From: an uncultured Candidatus Peribacteria bacterium
GTDB taxonomy: Bacteria; Patescibacteriota; Gracilibacteria; Peribacterales; Peribacteraceae
Length of the DNA: 64,000 bases
Direction: 5' to 3'
Assembly (NCBI GenBank): GCA_964391185.1
Contig: CAYMIX010000004.1
Span: 48,088-112,087 of the forward strand
Shown: positions 30,819 through 37,630 of the stretch, one piece after another
Layout: each line of letters starts with the position of its first letter
Numbering within the stretch: the first letter of the stretch is position 1
Made by a program: the position numbers and the translations under genes
Notes under the pieces: generated by a model
Told to the model about the DNA's origin: nothing
Databases searched by the model: none
Seen by the model: only the letters and a program-made list of their open reading frames with translations

Positions 30819-30924
30819 GTATGACCAGTGTAGCGGCTTTGACTATCCATCGCGACCGTCGTAGAGTGCGTTCCTTTGATTTTTCACATCATCTGTTCCT
30901 CCATCCACCTTCTCTTTTGAGGAA

Positions 30925-31515
30925 GTGTTTCCTCAGTATACCATTCGGGTAAGAGAAGATGCCGTGGAGGAAAGGAGTGTGTACGTGGCTATCTCTGTGT
31001 ACCCCCTTAAGATTGAATGGTTGACCCCATTGGTGCAGCTGCAGGATGCTTGTTTAAATCAAAATCATTGGCGATATTTGGATCCGCGGATTCTTGCTTT
31101 GTTCCTTTGCCAGCCACACAATGGTGGACTGGTTGTCGTCGAGTATGACGAAGAGATTGTTCGTCAGGCCGCCCATCAAATCGGGGAGAAAGGCAACAAT
31201 AGGGACGCGGAAACCAACTGGCACAAGGCAGTGCTGACCACTGGGACCTGGCAGTCGTTTCTGTTGTACAAAAACGAGCTCGGGTCCCAAGTCGACATTC
31301 AGAGTATTGGTACCCGGGCTGGGATGCGACGCAAGCAGCTTGCGACATCGCTTGTCAACACTCTGAAAAGCAAGATGCCCGAACTCGATGTCCGGCGGAT
31401 GCGCGCCATCGTTAATCAGAATAGCAATGCGGATGTTAAGAATTTCTTTCATTCATGCATGACATGCGTCACGCATGAACATCCGCACGGGATGATTTTC
31501 GAATACAAAAACTGA
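30925..31515 (+). CDS. Hypothetical, possible GNAT-type acetyltransferase
   Basis: GTG start; IGTRAGMRRKQLATSLV resembles GNAT motif A; otherwise unrecognised. Confidence 0.35.
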   Translation: MFPQYTIRVREDAVEERSVYVAISVYPLKIEWLTPLVQLQDACLNQNHWRYLDPRILALFLCQPHNGGLVVVEYDEEIVRQAAHQIGEKGNNRDAETNWHKAVLTTGTWQSFLLYKNELGSQVDIQSIGTRAGMRRKQLATSLVNTLKSKMPELDVRRMRAIVNQNSNADVKNFFHSCMTCVTHEHPHGMIFEYKN

Positions 31516-31581
31516 GAAGAGTCTTTCATGCTCTCACGGCACGCGGCCACCTCGTTCATCGGGGTGGTCGCTTTTCTATAT

Positions 31582-32544
31582 TTATTCGATGTATCCCTTC
31601 TGCATATCAAGTTTTTGCGTGGAACGTACTTTTCCATTCGATCCAATGACAGTTGCTTCCCATGTGAGGCGCACCCCGGTTTCGAAGCGAGTGTCCGATG
31701 TCAGTACTGCCTTGAGTGCTTCACCTTTTTGAATATCAACCGATGTATGAAGCGGCAAATAAATCTGTTCCCAGTGCGTTGGCTTTTCCCATGGGCTCGT
31801 TGATAACGTCACACCAGGAACGAGGCCTGATTCCCAAAACACGCAGAAGCCGTTCACGGTTGCTGGCTTATCGAATATCCACGATACCTCGCCACGGCGC
31901 TGGCTTTTTTCGTGTTTGGTGAAGTTCAGTGTGTCCCATGTTTTTACTGCATCTTTCGAGAGGAGATCTTTCGGGTCCACCGTCTTCACATACATATTAT
32001 TGATGCTGATATCCCGCGCTTCATCCCATGCGAGATCAAACCCAATGTCGTGCCAAATATCGACATTCTTTTTTAGTCGACCACCAGTCACAGGAACGAT
32101 TTTATGAACGAGGGTTTGTGGAATCATCACGCCGCCTGGCTTAAGGAATCGCTTCGCATCTTCCATATTTTCTATCAGGTGTTCTTCCAGTGCATAGTTA
32201 CCCAGAGTCTCCGAAATAACGATGTCTGTTTGCACGGGCTTTTTCATCATGTGCGCGTGCGCGTGGATAAACTCACAGCCGTGGATCTTATTGCGTTTTG
32301 CGAGCTGTTTGCTGATGCCAATCAAATCACTCGAAAGCTCGTACAAGTAACACTTCTTCGCACCGAGTTGCATCGCGAGGAAGCTCAGGAAGCCTGTGCC
32401 AGAACCGATATCCGATACAGTCATTCCTGGCTTGATGACCTTCTTCAGCGCTTCGTAAAACGCTTGATTGCGGACATCATCACCCATTAATTTGCGCTGG
32501 AGTTCGATCATGGGAGGATTGTAGCAGGTGCGAATGTAATCCAC
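31582..32544 (-). CDS. Protein arginine N-methyltransferase (PRMT)-like class I methyltransferase with beta-barrel domain
   Basis: L.GDDVRN.AFYEAL; motif I VSDIGSGTGFLS; post-I LYELS; double-E-type SETLGNYALEEHL; THW loop PTHWEQ. Start is GTG 32544 or ATG 32511. Confidence 0.7.
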   Translation of the reverse strand: MDYIRTCYNPPMIELQRKLMGDDVRNQAFYEALKKVIKPGMTVSDIGSGTGFLSFLAMQLGAKKCYLYELSSDLIGISKQLAKRNKIHGCEFIHAHAHMMKKPVQTDIVISETLGNYALEEHLIENMEDAKRFLKPGGVMIPQTLVHKIVPVTGGRLKKNVDIWHDIGFDLAWDEARDISINNMYVKTVDPKDLLSKDAVKTWDTLNFTKHEKSQRRGEVSWIFDKPATVNGFCVFWESGLVPGVTLSTSPWEKPTHWEQIYLPLHTSVDIQKGEALKAVLTSDTRFETGVRLTWEATVIGSNGKVRSTQKLDMQKGYIE

Positions 32545-32553
32545 TGGCTCTGA

Positions 32554-33090
32554 TTAAGATTCTGGACCTAACACTCCTTCCTTTGTAACAAATCTCTTAA
32601 ACAAGGCGTCCATTTTTATGATTTCATATTCAATTTGCCCGATGAAGTATACTTCTGCCTGACGTGATTGACTTTGTTCCCACGTATCTGCTGCCCATGC
32701 TTCACAAGAAAGTATCGAACCCCATCCTGTAGCAACGAGTAATTCAAATGCTTGTTTCGTATCACGTGTATTATCAATGATATTGATACGGTTCTGGTGG
32801 AGGGCAATTCTTGCTTCTGCCGCCGTCCGTTCTGCTTTTATATGGGCGCCAATAAGCGGGCCAATTTTAGCCGCGATGGGTGAACGCAGACGGTCGAGAA
32901 GTTCTTTTACTAAAGTGCCACAACCTTCCATCATCATGGTGCCGGAATTTGGATCACGCGCGTTCATCAGGCGAACAAGCTCTGCAACGCGGAGGAGAGC
33001 TTCTCCAGCAATGCGATTTGTCGGCTGATCGTACACACGCACAAGGCCCGTCAACGTATCCATCGGCGATGGTGATGATGTTTCAACCAT
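32554..33090 (-). CDS. Hypothetical protein directly upstream of the PRMT-like gene
   Basis: ORF only; 7-nt gap to the downstream gene. Confidence 0.5.
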   Translation of the reverse strand: MVETSSPSPMDTLTGLVRVYDQPTNRIAGEALLRVAELVRLMNARDPNSGTMMMEGCGTLVKELLDRLRSPIAAKIGPLIGAHIKAERTAAEARIALHQNRINIIDNTRDTKQAFELLVATGWGSILSCEAWAADTWEQSQSRQAEVYFIGQIEYEIIKMDALFKRFVTKEGVLGPES

Positions 33091-33210
33091 GGTCGGGCAG
33101 TCTGCCAGATTCCTTAGAGGAGTCTAGTGTTCAATAGACCGAACAATCATTCATGAATGCTGGAGGTTGATTATGGGAGAGATTGATACGCAAAGACTGG
33201 ATATGGACAT

Positions 33211-34839
33211 CTACGCCCCCAACGGAAACCCAACCGATTTCAATGCGTCGCGTGTGTTCTCGAAGACCGTTCCATCTTTTTCTTTTTGGCGGAACCAGGA
33301 AGTCTTCTCAAGCATTGGCTTGATACATTCGCTCGCGCCGGTAATCAAAATTGCTCTGCCAGATTTCTCCTGATCTTTGATAATTTCATGCAATGTTTCG
33401 AGTCCATCAAGGTCGATGTAGAACAGGTTACGCAGGCTGAGCACAACTGTGCCAGCGGTAATTTCTTTGATTGCATCTTCATGAGATTTACCATTGAAAT
33501 ACGTGAGCTCTCCCGCAAACCGATAGACCGTCACATCACTTTGATCTTTATATTCACCCAGTCGGTGATGGGGGATGCGAGCAAACATCTTTTTATCTTT
33601 ATGCAGTGTTAGTTCGCTCTGGCCGCGGGAGAGGTGATGGACGAATTCCAAGAGTGAAATTGTTGCACCTACAAGAATGCCGACCATCGGGTCGATACCA
33701 AAAGAAAGCCCAGCGACAAGCATTGCGAGCCAGAAGGAGCTTTGATCGAATCGGAAAAGTTGCTTGAAATGTTCTGGTCCCACCATGCGGATAGCAGCGA
33801 ATACAAGAATGCTTGCGACAGCGGCGAGTGGCATGTACTGGAAGCCTTGGAAAAGAAGCAACGCAATAAGCATAACAAAGATTGCATTGATGCCTGATGC
33901 ATAGCGCGACGTTGCGCCACTCTTTGCATTGAGTGCTGTACGAGCAAGTACACCAGTGGCAGGGAGACCCCCCGCAAGACCAGATAGAATGTTTGCGATA
34001 GCAAGTCCGAATGTTTCGCGTTTTTGGTTAAAACGTGTGTTTGTCATATTATCGGCGATTTTTGCGGAGAGCAGCGTTTCGAGGACGGCCACAATCGTGA
34101 CGGTGAATACCACTTTCAGGAAGTCGATGTTCAATGTCGAAATATCGAATGATGGCATCTGGATAAGTGTTGCCTTAAATGTGCCGTATTTAGAGAACAG
34201 TGTTTGTACGGTGAAAGGCAGCATTTGTATTTCTGATAGGTACCCGATCGTAATACCGATAACTGCAACGACAACAGCGCCTGGCACGCGTGGGAGCCAA
34301 CGGACGAGGGTAAAGAGCAGTGTGAGCATCAGCACAAAGAGAATCAACGAAGGCATTTCTGTTTGTCCCAGATGGGAGAATGATTCGCCAAGGTTTGCTA
34401 TGACAGATTCATGCACTGGTAATCCTTTGAGTCCGAGAGCCGCGTTCATTTGACCAAGAGCGATGGTGAGTCCGACGCCGAGCGTGAAGCCGTGCATCAC
34501 ACTCGAAGGAATAAACACGAGGTATTTGTCCCAGCGGAAAATATAAAAAACGAAGATGAGAACACCTGTGCAAATCGCGAGCATTGGGAGCATCTCCGCG
34601 CCGCTTGTGAGAGCGAACGCTGCGAGGATTCCGGAGAGCGCTCCTGCTGGCCCGACAACGTTGTAGTTACTTCCTCCGAAGATCGCTGCAGCAAGACCTG
34701 CCCACACCGCCGTGATAATACCCATGATCGGCGTTGCGCCGGATGCGATGGCGAGCGAAAGCGAGAGTGGGACCGAGACAAGCGCAACGGTGAGTCCTGC
34801 TTTCCAGTTCTGTGAAATTTGGCGGAGGATGTTATTCAT
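33211..34839 (-). CDS. SulP-family anion permease with C-terminal STAS domain
   Basis: N-terminal W....LTVALVS.PLSLSLAIASGA, many TM helices, cytoplasmic STAS-like tail. Confidence 0.85.
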   Translation of the reverse strand: MNNILRQISQNWKAGLTVALVSVPLSLSLAIASGATPIMGIITAVWAGLAAAIFGGSNYNVVGPAGALSGILAAFALTSGAEMLPMLAICTGVLIFVFYIFRWDKYLVFIPSSVMHGFTLGVGLTIALGQMNAALGLKGLPVHESVIANLGESFSHLGQTEMPSLILFVLMLTLLFTLVRWLPRVPGAVVVAVIGITIGYLSEIQMLPFTVQTLFSKYGTFKATLIQMPSFDISTLNIDFLKVVFTVTIVAVLETLLSAKIADNMTNTRFNQKRETFGLAIANILSGLAGGLPATGVLARTALNAKSGATSRYASGINAIFVMLIALLLFQGFQYMPLAAVASILVFAAIRMVGPEHFKQLFRFDQSSFWLAMLVAGLSFGIDPMVGILVGATISLLEFVHHLSRGQSELTLHKDKKMFARIPHHRLGEYKDQSDVTVYRFAGELTYFNGKSHEDAIKEITAGTVVLSLRNLFYIDLDGLETLHEIIKDQEKSGRAILITGASECIKPMLEKTSWFRQKEKDGTVFENTRDALKSVGFPLGA

Positions 34840-35017
34840 GATAGGAGGTATTAGGTGTCAGATGTACTACTCGCACGTGAAAAGTGAGTCAATAATAATG
34901 GTTACACCGGTGTAAAGCTCATGAAGGAGGTTTAGGTTTTTTCTAAAAAAGCGAGAGGCGCTGAGGCCTCCCGCGGTGCCTGGTCTGTGACCAGGCGTTG
35001 TCTGCTTAAAACTCTAG

Positions 35018-35242
35018 CTACTCGAGCGGGTGCACGATATAGCACCCATGGTACCCGACGCATGAGATCTGCCATCCCACTGCGACCAGGATGCCCCCGA
35101 TAATCATGCTGGCCAAACGCAGCACGTACCAGGGGATGGTCAACTTCTTTTCCATCCAGTCGCAGATCTTTTCGCCGGTGACCATGCCGCCGCTCACAAG
35201 CAGCGCTCCGGCCAAAACCATCCAGAAACCCAACGTCTCCAT
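35018..35242 (-). CDS. Small two-TM membrane protein
   Basis: METLGFWMVLAGALLVSGG... and LASMIIGGILVAVGW helices. Confidence 0.4.
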   Translation of the reverse strand: METLGFWMVLAGALLVSGGMVTGEKICDWMEKKLTIPWYVLRLASMIIGGILVAVGWQISCVGYHGCYIVHPLE

Positions 35243-35436
35243 TGCGTTCTCCTTAGCTATAGGTGGTGTCAAAAAACAGACAAGCGCATTATCGTCATAA
35301 TATTATTCCAAACAATGGTTTTAGAGACTTGTATACTATTCCGAAGGACTGTATAATGTCCGGTTTTGTCTAAACAGGGCGAGAATGGTGCGATAATCAC
35401 ATGGACTACAAGTGTCGTAACGGGGTCATCATTATT

Positions 35437-36039
35437 TTAACAACCAAATTGCCCCTCATTGCAGGGGGAAATGACCGAAGTGCCCTTGAATGATCCTGGC
35501 TCAGTCCCGCTCACCACGTAATCTTTGACATTCGTCTTTCCCCATTCCCCTTCGTGGTTCCACAGGTTCCAGAAATATCGCCACTCATTCCAACCAATGC
35601 CGAGATGTTGCACGTAGATCCCATGCTTCGTCAGCATCTGACCGATTTTGCGGCCCGTCATGCACGGCATGGAATAGCAGTAGACGATAATCTTCTTATT
35701 TGCTGGCAGCTCCTTGAAGGAGGTGACAATGCGCTCGACATCATCATATGCGGAATGATCTGGGTCGCTGTATGCGGGGATGCTCACTGCTCCCACAATA
35801 TGTTCCTTCTCGTATTCCTGCGAGCTTCGCAGATCGACAAGGATGAAATCTTGCGTAGTCTCACTCATTTTTTTGCGGAGGGAGTGAGGGCTGACATGCA
35901 CGGCGTTCTCTGTATCGTAGAAATCCCGAATAAGTGCCGCATCACTACGAACATAGGGTTCCAATACTGTGGAGGAGGCTACACCTCCAGCTAGTCCGGC
36001 TATCAATCCGACAATGATGACGAGGATATAGTTACGCAT
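35437..36039 (-). CDS. Membrane-anchored rhodanese-domain sulfurtransferase-like protein
   Basis: N-terminal TM, FILVDLRS..EY...HI.GA..IP, active-site loop VYCYSMPCMTGR. Confidence 0.75.
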   Translation of the reverse strand: MRNYILVIIVGLIAGLAGGVASSTVLEPYVRSDAALIRDFYDTENAVHVSPHSLRKKMSETTQDFILVDLRSSQEYEKEHIVGAVSIPAYSDPDHSAYDDVERIVTSFKELPANKKIIVYCYSMPCMTGRKIGQMLTKHGIYVQHLGIGWNEWRYFWNLWNHEGEWGKTNVKDYVVSGTEPGSFKGTSVISPCNEGQFGC

Positions 36040-36222
36040 GAGCGGATAGTATCAGATCGATTTGGTGGTTTGAATTGCTAGTGGTCACACAGGTTCCAAA
36101 ACATCATACTTGGTTGTGATGGAGGTGAACATGGCTTCAGCAAGAGCCATGAAATATGTCGACGTCGCTAAGCCCGCTATCACATTTCTGTGACAGCGGG
36201 CTCAGGTTTCCGGTGGTTCGGA

Positions 36223-36432
36223 TCAGATGCGGAGCGGCGGCAGACCCGCCACGGCCTCTTCCTTGATCTGTCGGTCGAATGACCACATGTTCAGAGGGAA
36301 GAACCATGCCATGTTCGCAACGCGCATGATCATCTTCGCGTCGTTGCCGAAGGCTTCCGAGATCAACATGATCCCGGCGAACAAGGCGATCTGACTCAAT
36401 CCGAACACACACCACTTTTGGTAGGCTTTCAT
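36223..36432 (-). CDS. Small membrane protein
   Basis: Strong AGGAGG 5 nt upstream of ATG 36432; one or two hydrophobic helices. Confidence 0.45.
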   Translation of the reverse strand: MKAYQKWCVFGLSQIALFAGIMLISEAFGNDAKMIMRVANMAWFFPLNMWSFDRQIKEEAVAGLPPLRI

Positions 36433-36507
36433 ACCCACCTCCTTTCTTTGGGTGAATGACCAAAAACCTAATTAGCAATATAATTTATTTTACTAAGTCT
36501 GTCAAGA

Positions 36508-36583
36508 TGGTGTCACGGGCCGGGATTGAACCGGCGACCCCGGGCTTATGAGTCCCGTGCTCTACCGACTGAGCTACCGTGAC
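36508..36583 (-). tRNA. tRNA with CAU anticodon (elongator Met or Ile2), CCA encoded
   Basis: Reverse complement folds: gtcacgg/ccgtgac acceptor (a G1-C72 pair argues against initiator), loop CTCATAA, T-arm gccgg-ttcaatc-ccggc. Confidence 0.85.
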
Positions 36584-36665
36584 ATGGGTCGATTACTCCA
36601 ATGGTTTGATATTATCACCGAGCACTGTTCTCTTATTTACGCCTCGGGCAAGCCCTCGGCGGTCA

Positions 36666-36688
36666 ACTGAGCTACCGTGACATGGGTC
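36666..36688 (-). repeat. 23-bp perfect direct repeat of the tRNA-CAU 5' end plus 7 upstream nt (partner at 36568-36590)
   Basis: actgagctaccgtgacatgggtc occurs twice, 98 nt apart. Confidence 0.8.
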
Positions 36689-36802
36689 TGTTTGCTGCAC
36701 AATGATGAGTTAAACGATCAAACATGCTCTTTAAGAGCCCGGAAAGAGTAGCCAAAGCCAAAGGCTTCGACAAGCGTAAATCGGACCTTAGAACCTCTTT
36801 CC

Positions 36803-37564
36803 TTACGATTTGGAACCCCAAGAAAACATTGATGTCATTCTTCTAAATAACCCCTTTGGCTTTTCTGGTGCAGAAGGAGGTGTAACAGTGACTGGCTGTG
36901 CAATCGGAGATGGAGTCTTTGGTTTCGACACACCTCCGGCATGTATCCACGCCCGCTTGGCAGCCTCGTTGGCAGCGTTCACCGAGAGTGTCGCTCGGAA
37001 TTCTTTCTTGAGATCATAAATAGCCTTCAGCGTTGCTTCAGATATATGTTCGTCGAGGCGCAGTTTCACTGTTTTGTTGTTCTCAAGCTGTGCGCGAACG
37101 GCCGCAAGATTAATGCCCGATGAGCGGATGCCTTCTTCAACAATGTTCGTTCTACGATCAAACGGATCGATTGAATCAGTTGGCTTTCCGTGTACAACGA
37201 ACGCTTCTTTGGCTCCCACAGTCTGGGTTCTATTTTCTCCGCGTAGCTGTGCGGCAATATCTTTATTCGTCGTTCTTGCTCGCACCTTGATTCCCTGTGC
37301 TTTTAATGTAGGCATAACGACGTTTCGCAGCTCATCGAGCTGTGCTCTCGTGTGGATCTGATATGTTGCAATTCCATTACTAACATTCTTTGCATACAGG
37401 CCCACGTTGAGAGGGTGTGCTTCAAAGGTTGTTTCTCCAACTGCATCAGGGATGACTCCATCAATTGCAGTCGTGCTGCCTGCAGCATCAACCGTGTCCG
37501 TTGTGAATGGTCGGCTGTATTCGATTCGTTCATTCAGAAGTATCTGAAGGGATAATTCGCGCAT
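36803..37564 (-). CDS. Hypothetical protein
   Basis: ORF only. Confidence 0.5.
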   Translation of the reverse strand: MRELSLQILLNERIEYSRPFTTDTVDAAGSTTAIDGVIPDAVGETTFEAHPLNVGLYAKNVSNGIATYQIHTRAQLDELRNVVMPTLKAQGIKVRARTTNKDIAAQLRGENRTQTVGAKEAFVVHGKPTDSIDPFDRRTNIVEEGIRSSGINLAAVRAQLENNKTVKLRLDEHISEATLKAIYDLKKEFRATLSVNAANEAAKRAWIHAGGVSKPKTPSPIAQPVTVTPPSAPEKPKGLFRRMTSMFSWGSKS

Positions 37565-37630
37565 GAATGAGGGGAAAAATAGCGGCGTATCCTACATTTT
37601 CAACATGGTCTGTCAAAGACGTTTCACTTT

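Follow-up and report, generated by a model that had tools for sequence, protein, structure and literature searches.

A stand-alone homologue of protein arginine methyltransferases in Peribacteraceae and its relatives in Gammaproteobacteria

The locus and its PRMT homologue

The window analysed here is a stretch of 64,000 nucleotides from the genome of an uncultured Candidatus Peribacteria bacterium of family Peribacteraceae (assembly GCA_964391185.1, contig CAYMIX010000004.1, positions 48,088 to 112,087). It encodes a homologue of the protein arginine methyltransferases (PRMTs), which is preceded by a gene for a 178-aa protein and separated from the next gene by a terminator-like hairpin (Table 1). 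The genome is 1.48 Mb in size, 98.5% complete and harbors a single copy of the PRMT gene.

Table 1. Features of the PRMT locus, in window coordinates
Feature	Position	Strand	Remarks
PRMT-family methyltransferase gene	31582..32544	-	open reading frame of 320 aa from GTG at 32544; all motifs in translation
Upstream gene, 178-aa protein	32554..33090	-	ATG start; same strand, head to tail with the PRMT gene
GC-rich hairpin, 12 pairs, 9 of them G-C	31543..31571		terminator-like on the + strand; T-run follows on the + strand only

The product of the PRMT gene is a genuine two-domain PRMT homologue. Its S-adenosylmethionine (SAM)-binding Rossmann domain covers residues ~12-145, a helix-loop-helix arm residues 156-181, and a beta-barrel with the THW loop residues ~145-320. 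Besides the generic methyltransferase domain Methyltransf_31 (50.4 bits, residues 37-146), the profile searches that the initial annotation had called for returned PRMT_C (PF22528; 46.4 bits against a cut-off of 27, residues 150-281) and PRMT5_C (PF17286; 33.4 bits against a cut-off of 30.3). The beta-barrel-length C-terminus announced in the same annotation was recovered as well, with about 175 residues after the double-E loop. An outcome in which generic methyltransferases matched best and both the beta-barrel and the THW loop were missing was looked for and did not occur.

Comparison with PDB sequences by phmmer retrieved PRMT2 as the best match (E 1.9e-20, residues 15-278), followed by CARM1, PRMT8, PRMT3, PRMT6 and PRMT1, and all 60 matches listed were eukaryotic PRMTs. 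A profile and an alignment were then based on 38 family members, in which the other sequences were 48-59% identical to the window protein. The best PDB match of this profile was Naegleria PRMT1 (E 2.2e-40). Its 60 listed matches were again all eukaryotic PRMTs, with no bacterial entry; type I enzymes scored best, PRMT7 and PRMT9 were weaker, and PRMT5 was not among them. The E values obtained with PRMT2 and with Naegleria PRMT1 are such that the similarity is not due to chance. By sequence comparison, the family appears nearest to the type I enzymes.

An AlphaFold2 model built on the 38-member alignment reached a mean predicted local distance difference test score (pLDDT) of 93.3 and a predicted template modelling score (pTM) of 0.89, and displayed strands from residue 185 to 313. 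Foldseek matched this model to PRMT6 (E 2.6e-27, template modelling (TM) score 0.78) and to PRMT1 (1ori; TMq 0.84, root mean square deviation 2.9 over 316 columns), while PRMT2 and CARM1 also matched along its whole length.

The motifs quoted in the initial annotation were all found in the translation: motif I (D/E-x-G-x-G-x-G; VSDIGSGTGFLS, residues 43-54), the post-I glutamate E69 within LYELS, the double-E loop (SETLGNYALEEHL, residues 111-123) and the THW loop (PTHWEQ, residues 255-260). Invariant residues in the 38 sequences comprised D45, G47, G49 and G51 of motif I, E112, E120 and E121 of the double-E loop, T256, H257 and W258 of the THW loop, and also D22, R25 and E69, which aligned with their Naegleria PRMT1 counterparts. 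The THW triplet aligned with the THW of both PRMT2 and Naegleria PRMT1. In terms of rat PRMT1 numbering, we take R25 and D22 to be the arginine that binds the SAM carboxylate and its aspartate, E69 the ribose-binding glutamate, E112 and E121 the pair of glutamates, nine residues apart, clamping the guanidinium group, and H257-W258 the His-Trp of the THW loop. The positions that presumably correspond to Met48 and Met155 of rat PRMT1 are occupied by leucine in the window protein, according to the Naegleria PRMT1 alignment. The helix-loop-helix seen in the model at residues 156-181 aligned to Naegleria PRMT1 with single-residue gaps only, and the Naegleria stretch concerned is assumed here to be the dimerisation arm. 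The protein starts at its catalytic core and displayed no targeting domain, signal peptide or extra domain.

The length of 320 aa initially assigned to this protein is that of the open reading frame from GTG; the likelier true start codon is an ATG at position 32511 (Met12), which would give a product of 309 aa. The latter codon is favoured because the public gene call for the window protein (P0001) is 309 aa long, because 36 out of 37 aligned homologues begin at most five residues from Met12 (only P0028 displayed a long extension), and because residues 1-9 of the AlphaFold2 model had a pLDDT below 50. The stop codon of the upstream gene (TAA, 32556-32554) is followed by a gap of 9 nt, and not 7 nt as first reported, when counted to the GTG, and of 42 nt when counted to the likelier ATG.

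Distribution and phylogeny of the clade

PRMT homologues had initially been described as rare in bacteria. This agreed with an even sample of the phylum, in which five out of 301 genomes displayed the PRMT_C domain, all of them Peribacteraceae, while none of the 294 other Patescibacteria did; the domain was likewise missing from the 14 control genomes. The description did not suit two unrelated lineages in which the clade is frequent. In a family-wide sample of Peribacteraceae, 112 out of 200 genomes harbored a homologue (85 of 151 when restricted to high-quality genomes), and 49 of 84 genera were represented. In the gammaproteobacterial order of Stenotrophobium, homologues of 45-51% identity were encountered in 35 out of 121 genomes, one of which was flagged as unpublished. 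Closer to the window, the gene was patchily distributed: 12 of the 41 nearest genomes displayed a homologue (one of them, G035, only as a partial core match), with none in the seven other species of the window's genus and nine among the 24 other family genomes of this set. The gene is rare across bacteria overall, yet frequent and dispensable in at least two unrelated lineages.

A species-level genome collection yielded 566 pattern hits, including 538 relatives, and the best 80 of these 538 were used for the tree and for the neighbourhood counts. They consisted of 57 rows labelled Peregrinibacteriota, 15 Pseudomonadota, two Planctomycetota, two Gracilibacteria and four without a phylum label. 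The clade is common to Peribacteraceae, Nevskiaceae-type Gammaproteobacteria and a few Planctomycetota (two high-GC bins). Loci from Nevskiaceae and Planctomycetota displayed a G+C content of 57-74% versus 40-65% for Peribacteria-type loci, which is why they are not considered stray Peribacteria contigs. Cultured organisms are represented among the carriers, for instance Stenotrophobium rhamnosiphilum GT1R17 and Fontimonas thermophila DSM 23609, and the gene was also found on a complete Stagnimonas chromosome.

In a quick, unrooted maximum-likelihood tree, the 15 Pseudomonadota rows formed two well-supported clades among clades of Peribacteria. The deep forks of this tree were unsupported, and a single origin of the Pseudomonadota rows is compatible with it. 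Loci L043 and L050 were among the nearest rows to the window, and no supported clade contained the window itself.

In public records, the source names of close homologues were Peregrinibacteria, Peribacteria and Peribacteraceae. The product was called 'protein arginine N-methyltransferase 1' by JGI and mostly 'methyltransferase domain-containing protein' or '50S ribosomal protein L11 methyltransferase' by NCBI. No fused forms were encountered among longer proteins, a search that amounts to weak evidence. Plasmids contained no close relative; nine distant hits, all below 60% identity, were listed at 24-28%. Nor was a close relative found in phages, where four partial hits were confined to the methyltransferase core.

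Textbooks usually present arginine methylation as a modification of eukaryotes, and little is known, to our knowledge, about which enzymes produce the methylarginine reported from bacterial proteomes. The window gene belongs to a coherent, uncharacterised and stand-alone clade of a known kind of enzyme, in which all catalytic features of type I PRMTs have been kept. The cultured carriers make PRMT-type arginine methylation in bacteria directly testable, beyond the uncultured ultra-small ones. Literature searches retrieved no publication on this clade, which may already be listed by Aravind et al. 2011.

Predicted activity and candidate substrates

The reading we favour, and consider rather probable, is that of a stand-alone arginine-guanidino methyltransferase, probably a dimer, whose substrates are proteins of the cell itself. 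Such an enzyme would be a minimal core, composed of the SAM-binding Rossmann domain and of the PRMT beta-barrel with its putative dimerisation arm, and its working form would most likely be a head-to-tail homodimer. SAM would be bound through motif I, E69 and R25, and E112 and E121, together with H257 from the THW loop, would clamp the guanidinium group of the substrate. Methyl groups would then be passed to arginine side chains of at least one protein of the bacterium itself. This model predicts the enzymatic activity, dimerisation, the preference for a protein over a small molecule as substrate, and the methylation product.

The window protein resembles the eukaryotic type I PRMTs (PRMT1/Hmt1, PRMT2, PRMT3, CARM1/PRMT4, PRMT6, PRMT8) in its two-domain core, in the order of its motifs, in motif I, the post-I glutamate, the double-E and THW loops, and in the equal length of the arm region. 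Profile matches to these enzymes ranged from E 2e-40 to 1e-32, and solved PRMTs aligned with the model at TM scores of 0.78-0.85 over ~316-330 columns. It differs from them by its bacterial host, by the absence of the N-terminal alpha-X (YFxxY) helix and of an N-terminal targeting domain, and by an identity of only ~19-24% in structural alignments, no single paralogue being clearly closest.

Protein substrates are favoured with moderate confidence because the clade combines a canonical THW loop with a housekeeping context, unlike the PRMT-like enzymes that are embedded in biosynthetic clusters. The context was established by comparing the neighbourhoods of nine relatives, of the PRMT-less locus of G002 (a genome of the same genus) and of the 80 collection loci. 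No biosynthetic genes were found around the PRMT gene in the 80 loci. The neighbours give no hint of a pathway, and the gene is stand-alone among housekeeping genes.

A genome-wide scan for segments dense in RG/RGG uncovered one tail resembling a glycine- and arginine-rich (GAR) domain, at the C-terminus of polynucleotide phosphorylase (PNPase; ..GGFGGGRPGGRPGGFRR). The PNPase gene is located outside the window on contig C7 of the same genome (C7:26999-29287, minus strand; locus L110:500-2788), and the Gly/Arg-rich tail follows the S1 domain. This tail was present in 22 out of 22 family genomes examined, nine with and 13 without the PRMT gene. It was missing in most other families of the class, in the PRMT-bearing genome G026, and in the four gammaproteobacterial carriers examined. 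The tail is a weak, lineage-specific substrate candidate. A bolder proposal holds that the clade is a true bacterial protein-arginine methylation system, the nearest prokaryotic architecture to PRMT1-type enzymes owing to its canonical THW loop and full-length arm, and that it methylates the PNPase tail in Peribacteraceae; we regard this as a long shot. If it were true, RGG-tail methylation of an RNA-processing enzyme would be a bacterial trait, and the cultured Nevskiaceae carriers would offer a model for the origin of eukaryotic arginine methylation.

Several observations weigh against an enzyme that methylates the cell's own proteins. The alpha-X helix, which covers SAM in eukaryotic type I enzymes, is missing from the clade according to the alignments: 36 of 37 homologues start near Met12, at the helix carrying D22 and R25, and PDB alignments begin at position 3-4 of the family profile. 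This helix is typical of type I enzymes and does not define the whole PRMT family. Furthermore, the function of the gene is dispensable, since the gene was not found in seven out of seven other species of the same genus nor in 88 of the 200 family genomes. The PNPase tail does not co-vary with the PRMT gene and is missing in the gammaproteobacterial hosts. Lastly, a non-protein substrate is a live alternative because free-arginine enzymes (SznE/StzE) and PRMT relatives from peptide-antibiotic operons exist.

According to this alternative, the methyl acceptor would be free arginine, another guanidino metabolite or some short peptide, and not a folded cellular protein. A guanidino methyltransferase for free arginine has a precedent (PMC11705231; PMC12637814) in the bacterial enzymes SznE/StzE (PMC11705231). 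Aravind and colleagues place bacterial PRMT relatives, as peptide methylases, in antibiotic-like peptide operons (PMC3417536). Genes recovered here from plasmids displayed matching contexts. A PRMT-like domain on a Nostoc plasmid lies inside a non-ribosomal peptide synthetase (NRPS), and PRMT-like genes on Streptomyces plasmids are found beside amidinotransferase, cupin, DUF3865 and arginine-deiminase-family genes. Plasmid pAHKW2b.3 of Pantoea dispersa (L145:3238-8456) harbors genes for an iron-containing redox enzyme, a Rieske protein, a PRMT-like protein annotated as L11 methyltransferase, a major facilitator superfamily (MFS) transporter and an ATP-grasp protein, a cluster suggestive of a pathway to some modified guanidino compound. 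These contexts fit both the peptide-methylase statement (PMC3417536) and the free-arginine enzymes (PMC11705231).

The cluster-embedded enzymes share with the window protein a bacterial origin, the same fold over ~83% of the length, motif I and both glutamates of the double-E loop. They are only about 25% identical to it (24-26% for the seven fuller plasmid hits), contain indels in the arm and display altered THW loops (TNW, SHW or HCW), whereas THW is invariant in the window's family. They also reside in biosynthetic clusters or in an NRPS fusion, in contrast to the stand-alone genes of this family, for which a biosynthetic cluster was found in none of the 80 loci. SznF-like oxygenase or tailoring neighbours, which would be expected by analogy with the context of SznE/StzE, were found neither in the window nor in the 80 related loci. 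In 13 of these loci the PRMT gene is arranged tail to tail with a gene of the AA_kinase+GNAT type (N-acetylglutamate synthase-like), which counts in favour of the alternative; being convergent, the latter gene is outside the PRMT operon. Finally, family genomes are only 1-1.5 Mb in size, and such ultra-small bacteria are not known for much secondary metabolism. A small-molecule or short-peptide substrate is judged unlikely, though it is the most serious of the alternatives.

The protein encoded upstream had been proposed as a substrate or partner of the PRMT homologue. It represents a tiny lineage-restricted family. It matched no Pfam or NCBIfam family and was present in two of the 41 relatives, namely in its own genome and in the PRMT-less G002, where the homologous gene occupies the same chromosomal spot in opposite orientation. 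A HMMER search over 1.84 billion representatives returned 16 proteins at E<=1e-3; full-length matches numbered about 11 and displayed 30-37% identity. Two long repeat proteins, one from an ant and one named 'methylglyoxal synthase' by JGI, were rejected as relatives because they look like chance or low-complexity matches. The AlphaFold2 model of the 178-aa protein was all-helical (pLDDT 82) with one helix of 59 residues, and Foldseek found no match to it in the PDB at E<=1e-3.

A functional pair, in which the small protein would act as substrate, adaptor or regulator, is suggested by the common strand and the short distance of the two genes and by the absence of any promoter-like or terminator-like site between them. 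In addition, a 151-nt contig from a wastewater RNA library (X20 record 7) spans the junction (32492-32642). Co-transcription in the window genome is possible; the contig is a weak hint of it, because RNA libraries can contain DNA and a contig over two genes does not demonstrate a single transcript. Contigs from two RNA-library runs covered parts of the 178-aa gene and of the neighbouring GNAT gene; none in two runs covered the PRMT body (31582-32491), a missing cover that proves nothing. Comparative data speak against the pair. A family profile of the 178-aa protein was searched against 100 loci translated in six frames (L002-L011 and L015-L104, among them the loci of the relatives and all 80 from the collection) and matched no PRMT locus of another genome, its only match being L015, the PRMT-less and inverted locus of G002. 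BLASTP of the protein at E<=10 gave noise only, and the protein contains neither RG nor RGG motifs. As no copy was found beside the PRMT gene of any other genome examined, the 178-aa gene is not a conserved partner. We hold a functional pair to be quite improbable; the idea of an operon partner is removed, and the gene is only a neighbour of the PRMT gene.

Still less probable is a eukaryote-like effector, delivered to a host or partner cell to methylate the proteins of the latter, in the way proposed for eukaryote-like proteins of Legionella. An attached life on other cells is commonly ascribed to ultra-small bacteria, and the patchy distribution over at least three phyla suggests horizontal spread. 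Predicted PRMTs without an assigned function also figure among the protein methyltransferases of Legionella pneumophila (PMC10117894). The window protein, however, starts at its catalytic core and is devoid of additional domains and of a signal peptide, secretion genes were not recurrent near the PRMT gene in the 80 loci, and homologues are frequent in a gammaproteobacterial order that includes cultured isolates.

The idea that the protein is PrmA (ribosomal protein L11 methyltransferase) or its functional replacement draws on the public names, on a Pfam PrmA match of 44.8 bits and on the lack of any PrmA above cut-off in the genome or its 41 relatives, and it is scarcely credible given that the Pfam match extends over no more than the generic core of methyltransferases (positions 153-257 of a 296-position profile), that the NCBIfam prmA equivalog TIGR00406 reached 27.6 bits against a cut-off of 183.15 (positions 151-256 only), and that PrmA was found neither in relatives with the PRMT gene nor in those without it, so that no complementary pattern exists. 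Displacement of PrmA by the PRMT gene was rejected on the same distribution. Both proteins have a class I SAM methyltransferase core; the C-terminal half of the window protein is a PRMT beta-barrel, and we know of neither this barrel nor a THW loop in PrmA. Public records that call these proteins 'L11 methyltransferase' are in error.

Neighbouring genes and history of the locus

The hairpin of Table 1 is located in the 66-nt gap between the convergent GNAT (+ strand, ending at 31515) and PRMT (- strand, ending at 31582) genes. It is a consensus match only, in a region with three terminator-like sites versus a mean of 2.4 in shuffled sequences, and probably ends transcription. As a terminator, it would keep the downstream hydrolase gene out of the PRMT transcript here.

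No gene accompanied the PRMT gene in most of the compared loci. The recurrent neighbours among the 80 loci were LigA (23, convergent), the convergent AA_kinase+GNAT gene (13), MscL (13) and an alpha/beta hydrolase (10). The GNAT gene of the window was considered as a counterpart of the AA_kinase+GNAT neighbour and rejected, its product being unrelated to the GNAT half of the latter. MscL genes were found on the opposite strand near the PRMT gene in 13 Peribacteria loci (e.g. L049:1931-2311, - strand), and in one proteobacterial bin a MscS gene (L054:2928-3998, + strand) ends at the PRMT start. Neighbours in Nevskiaceae included a divergent HrpB helicase, a hydrolase and a thioesterase.

The alpha/beta hydrolase gene was located downstream in six Peribacteria loci (the window, L031, L038, L043, L050 and L103). 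A same-strand gene for a 316-aa alpha/beta hydrolase also follows the PRMT gene in Stagnimonas-type loci (L094:4941-5891, + strand; L087, L096, L099), and the hydrolases of the two groups were only 24% identical. The hydrolase was not retained as a partner of the PRMT homologue; G002 keeps the hydrolase without the PRMT gene.

In G008, which belongs to another genus, the PRMT gene is situated directly upstream of genes for the hydrolase, a MurF-like ligase and a DegT aminotransferase, as in the window, while G002 displayed the same hydrolase/MurF-like/DegT block without it. Compared with G002, the window contains ~6.7 kb of extra sequence (30900-37600) between the alpha/beta hydrolase and cupredoxin genes, comprising the GNAT and PRMT genes, a SulP/STAS transporter, an 84-aa membrane protein, a rhodanese, a tRNA region and a 253-aa protein; at the corresponding place G002 has only the inverted homologue of the 178-aa gene. 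Because the association of PRMT and hydrolase genes is common to G008, L031, L038, L043, L050 and L103, with L043 and L050 near the window in the tree, the PRMT gene would have been passed down at this position and have disappeared from the sister species of the window, rather than been freshly imported.

Regarding the genome as a whole, the short contigs C10, C17, C18, C20, C21 and C27-C31 (2.6-38 kb) displayed 58-69% G+C versus 45-50% in the large contigs, and may come from another organism despite a low contamination estimate. Some part of the analysed stretch was detected in 20 rows from nine studies, some of which are possibly the source of the assembly, and nearly the whole stretch was present in 18 DNA runs, the samples being wastewater, sludge, aquaculture and further aquatic material.

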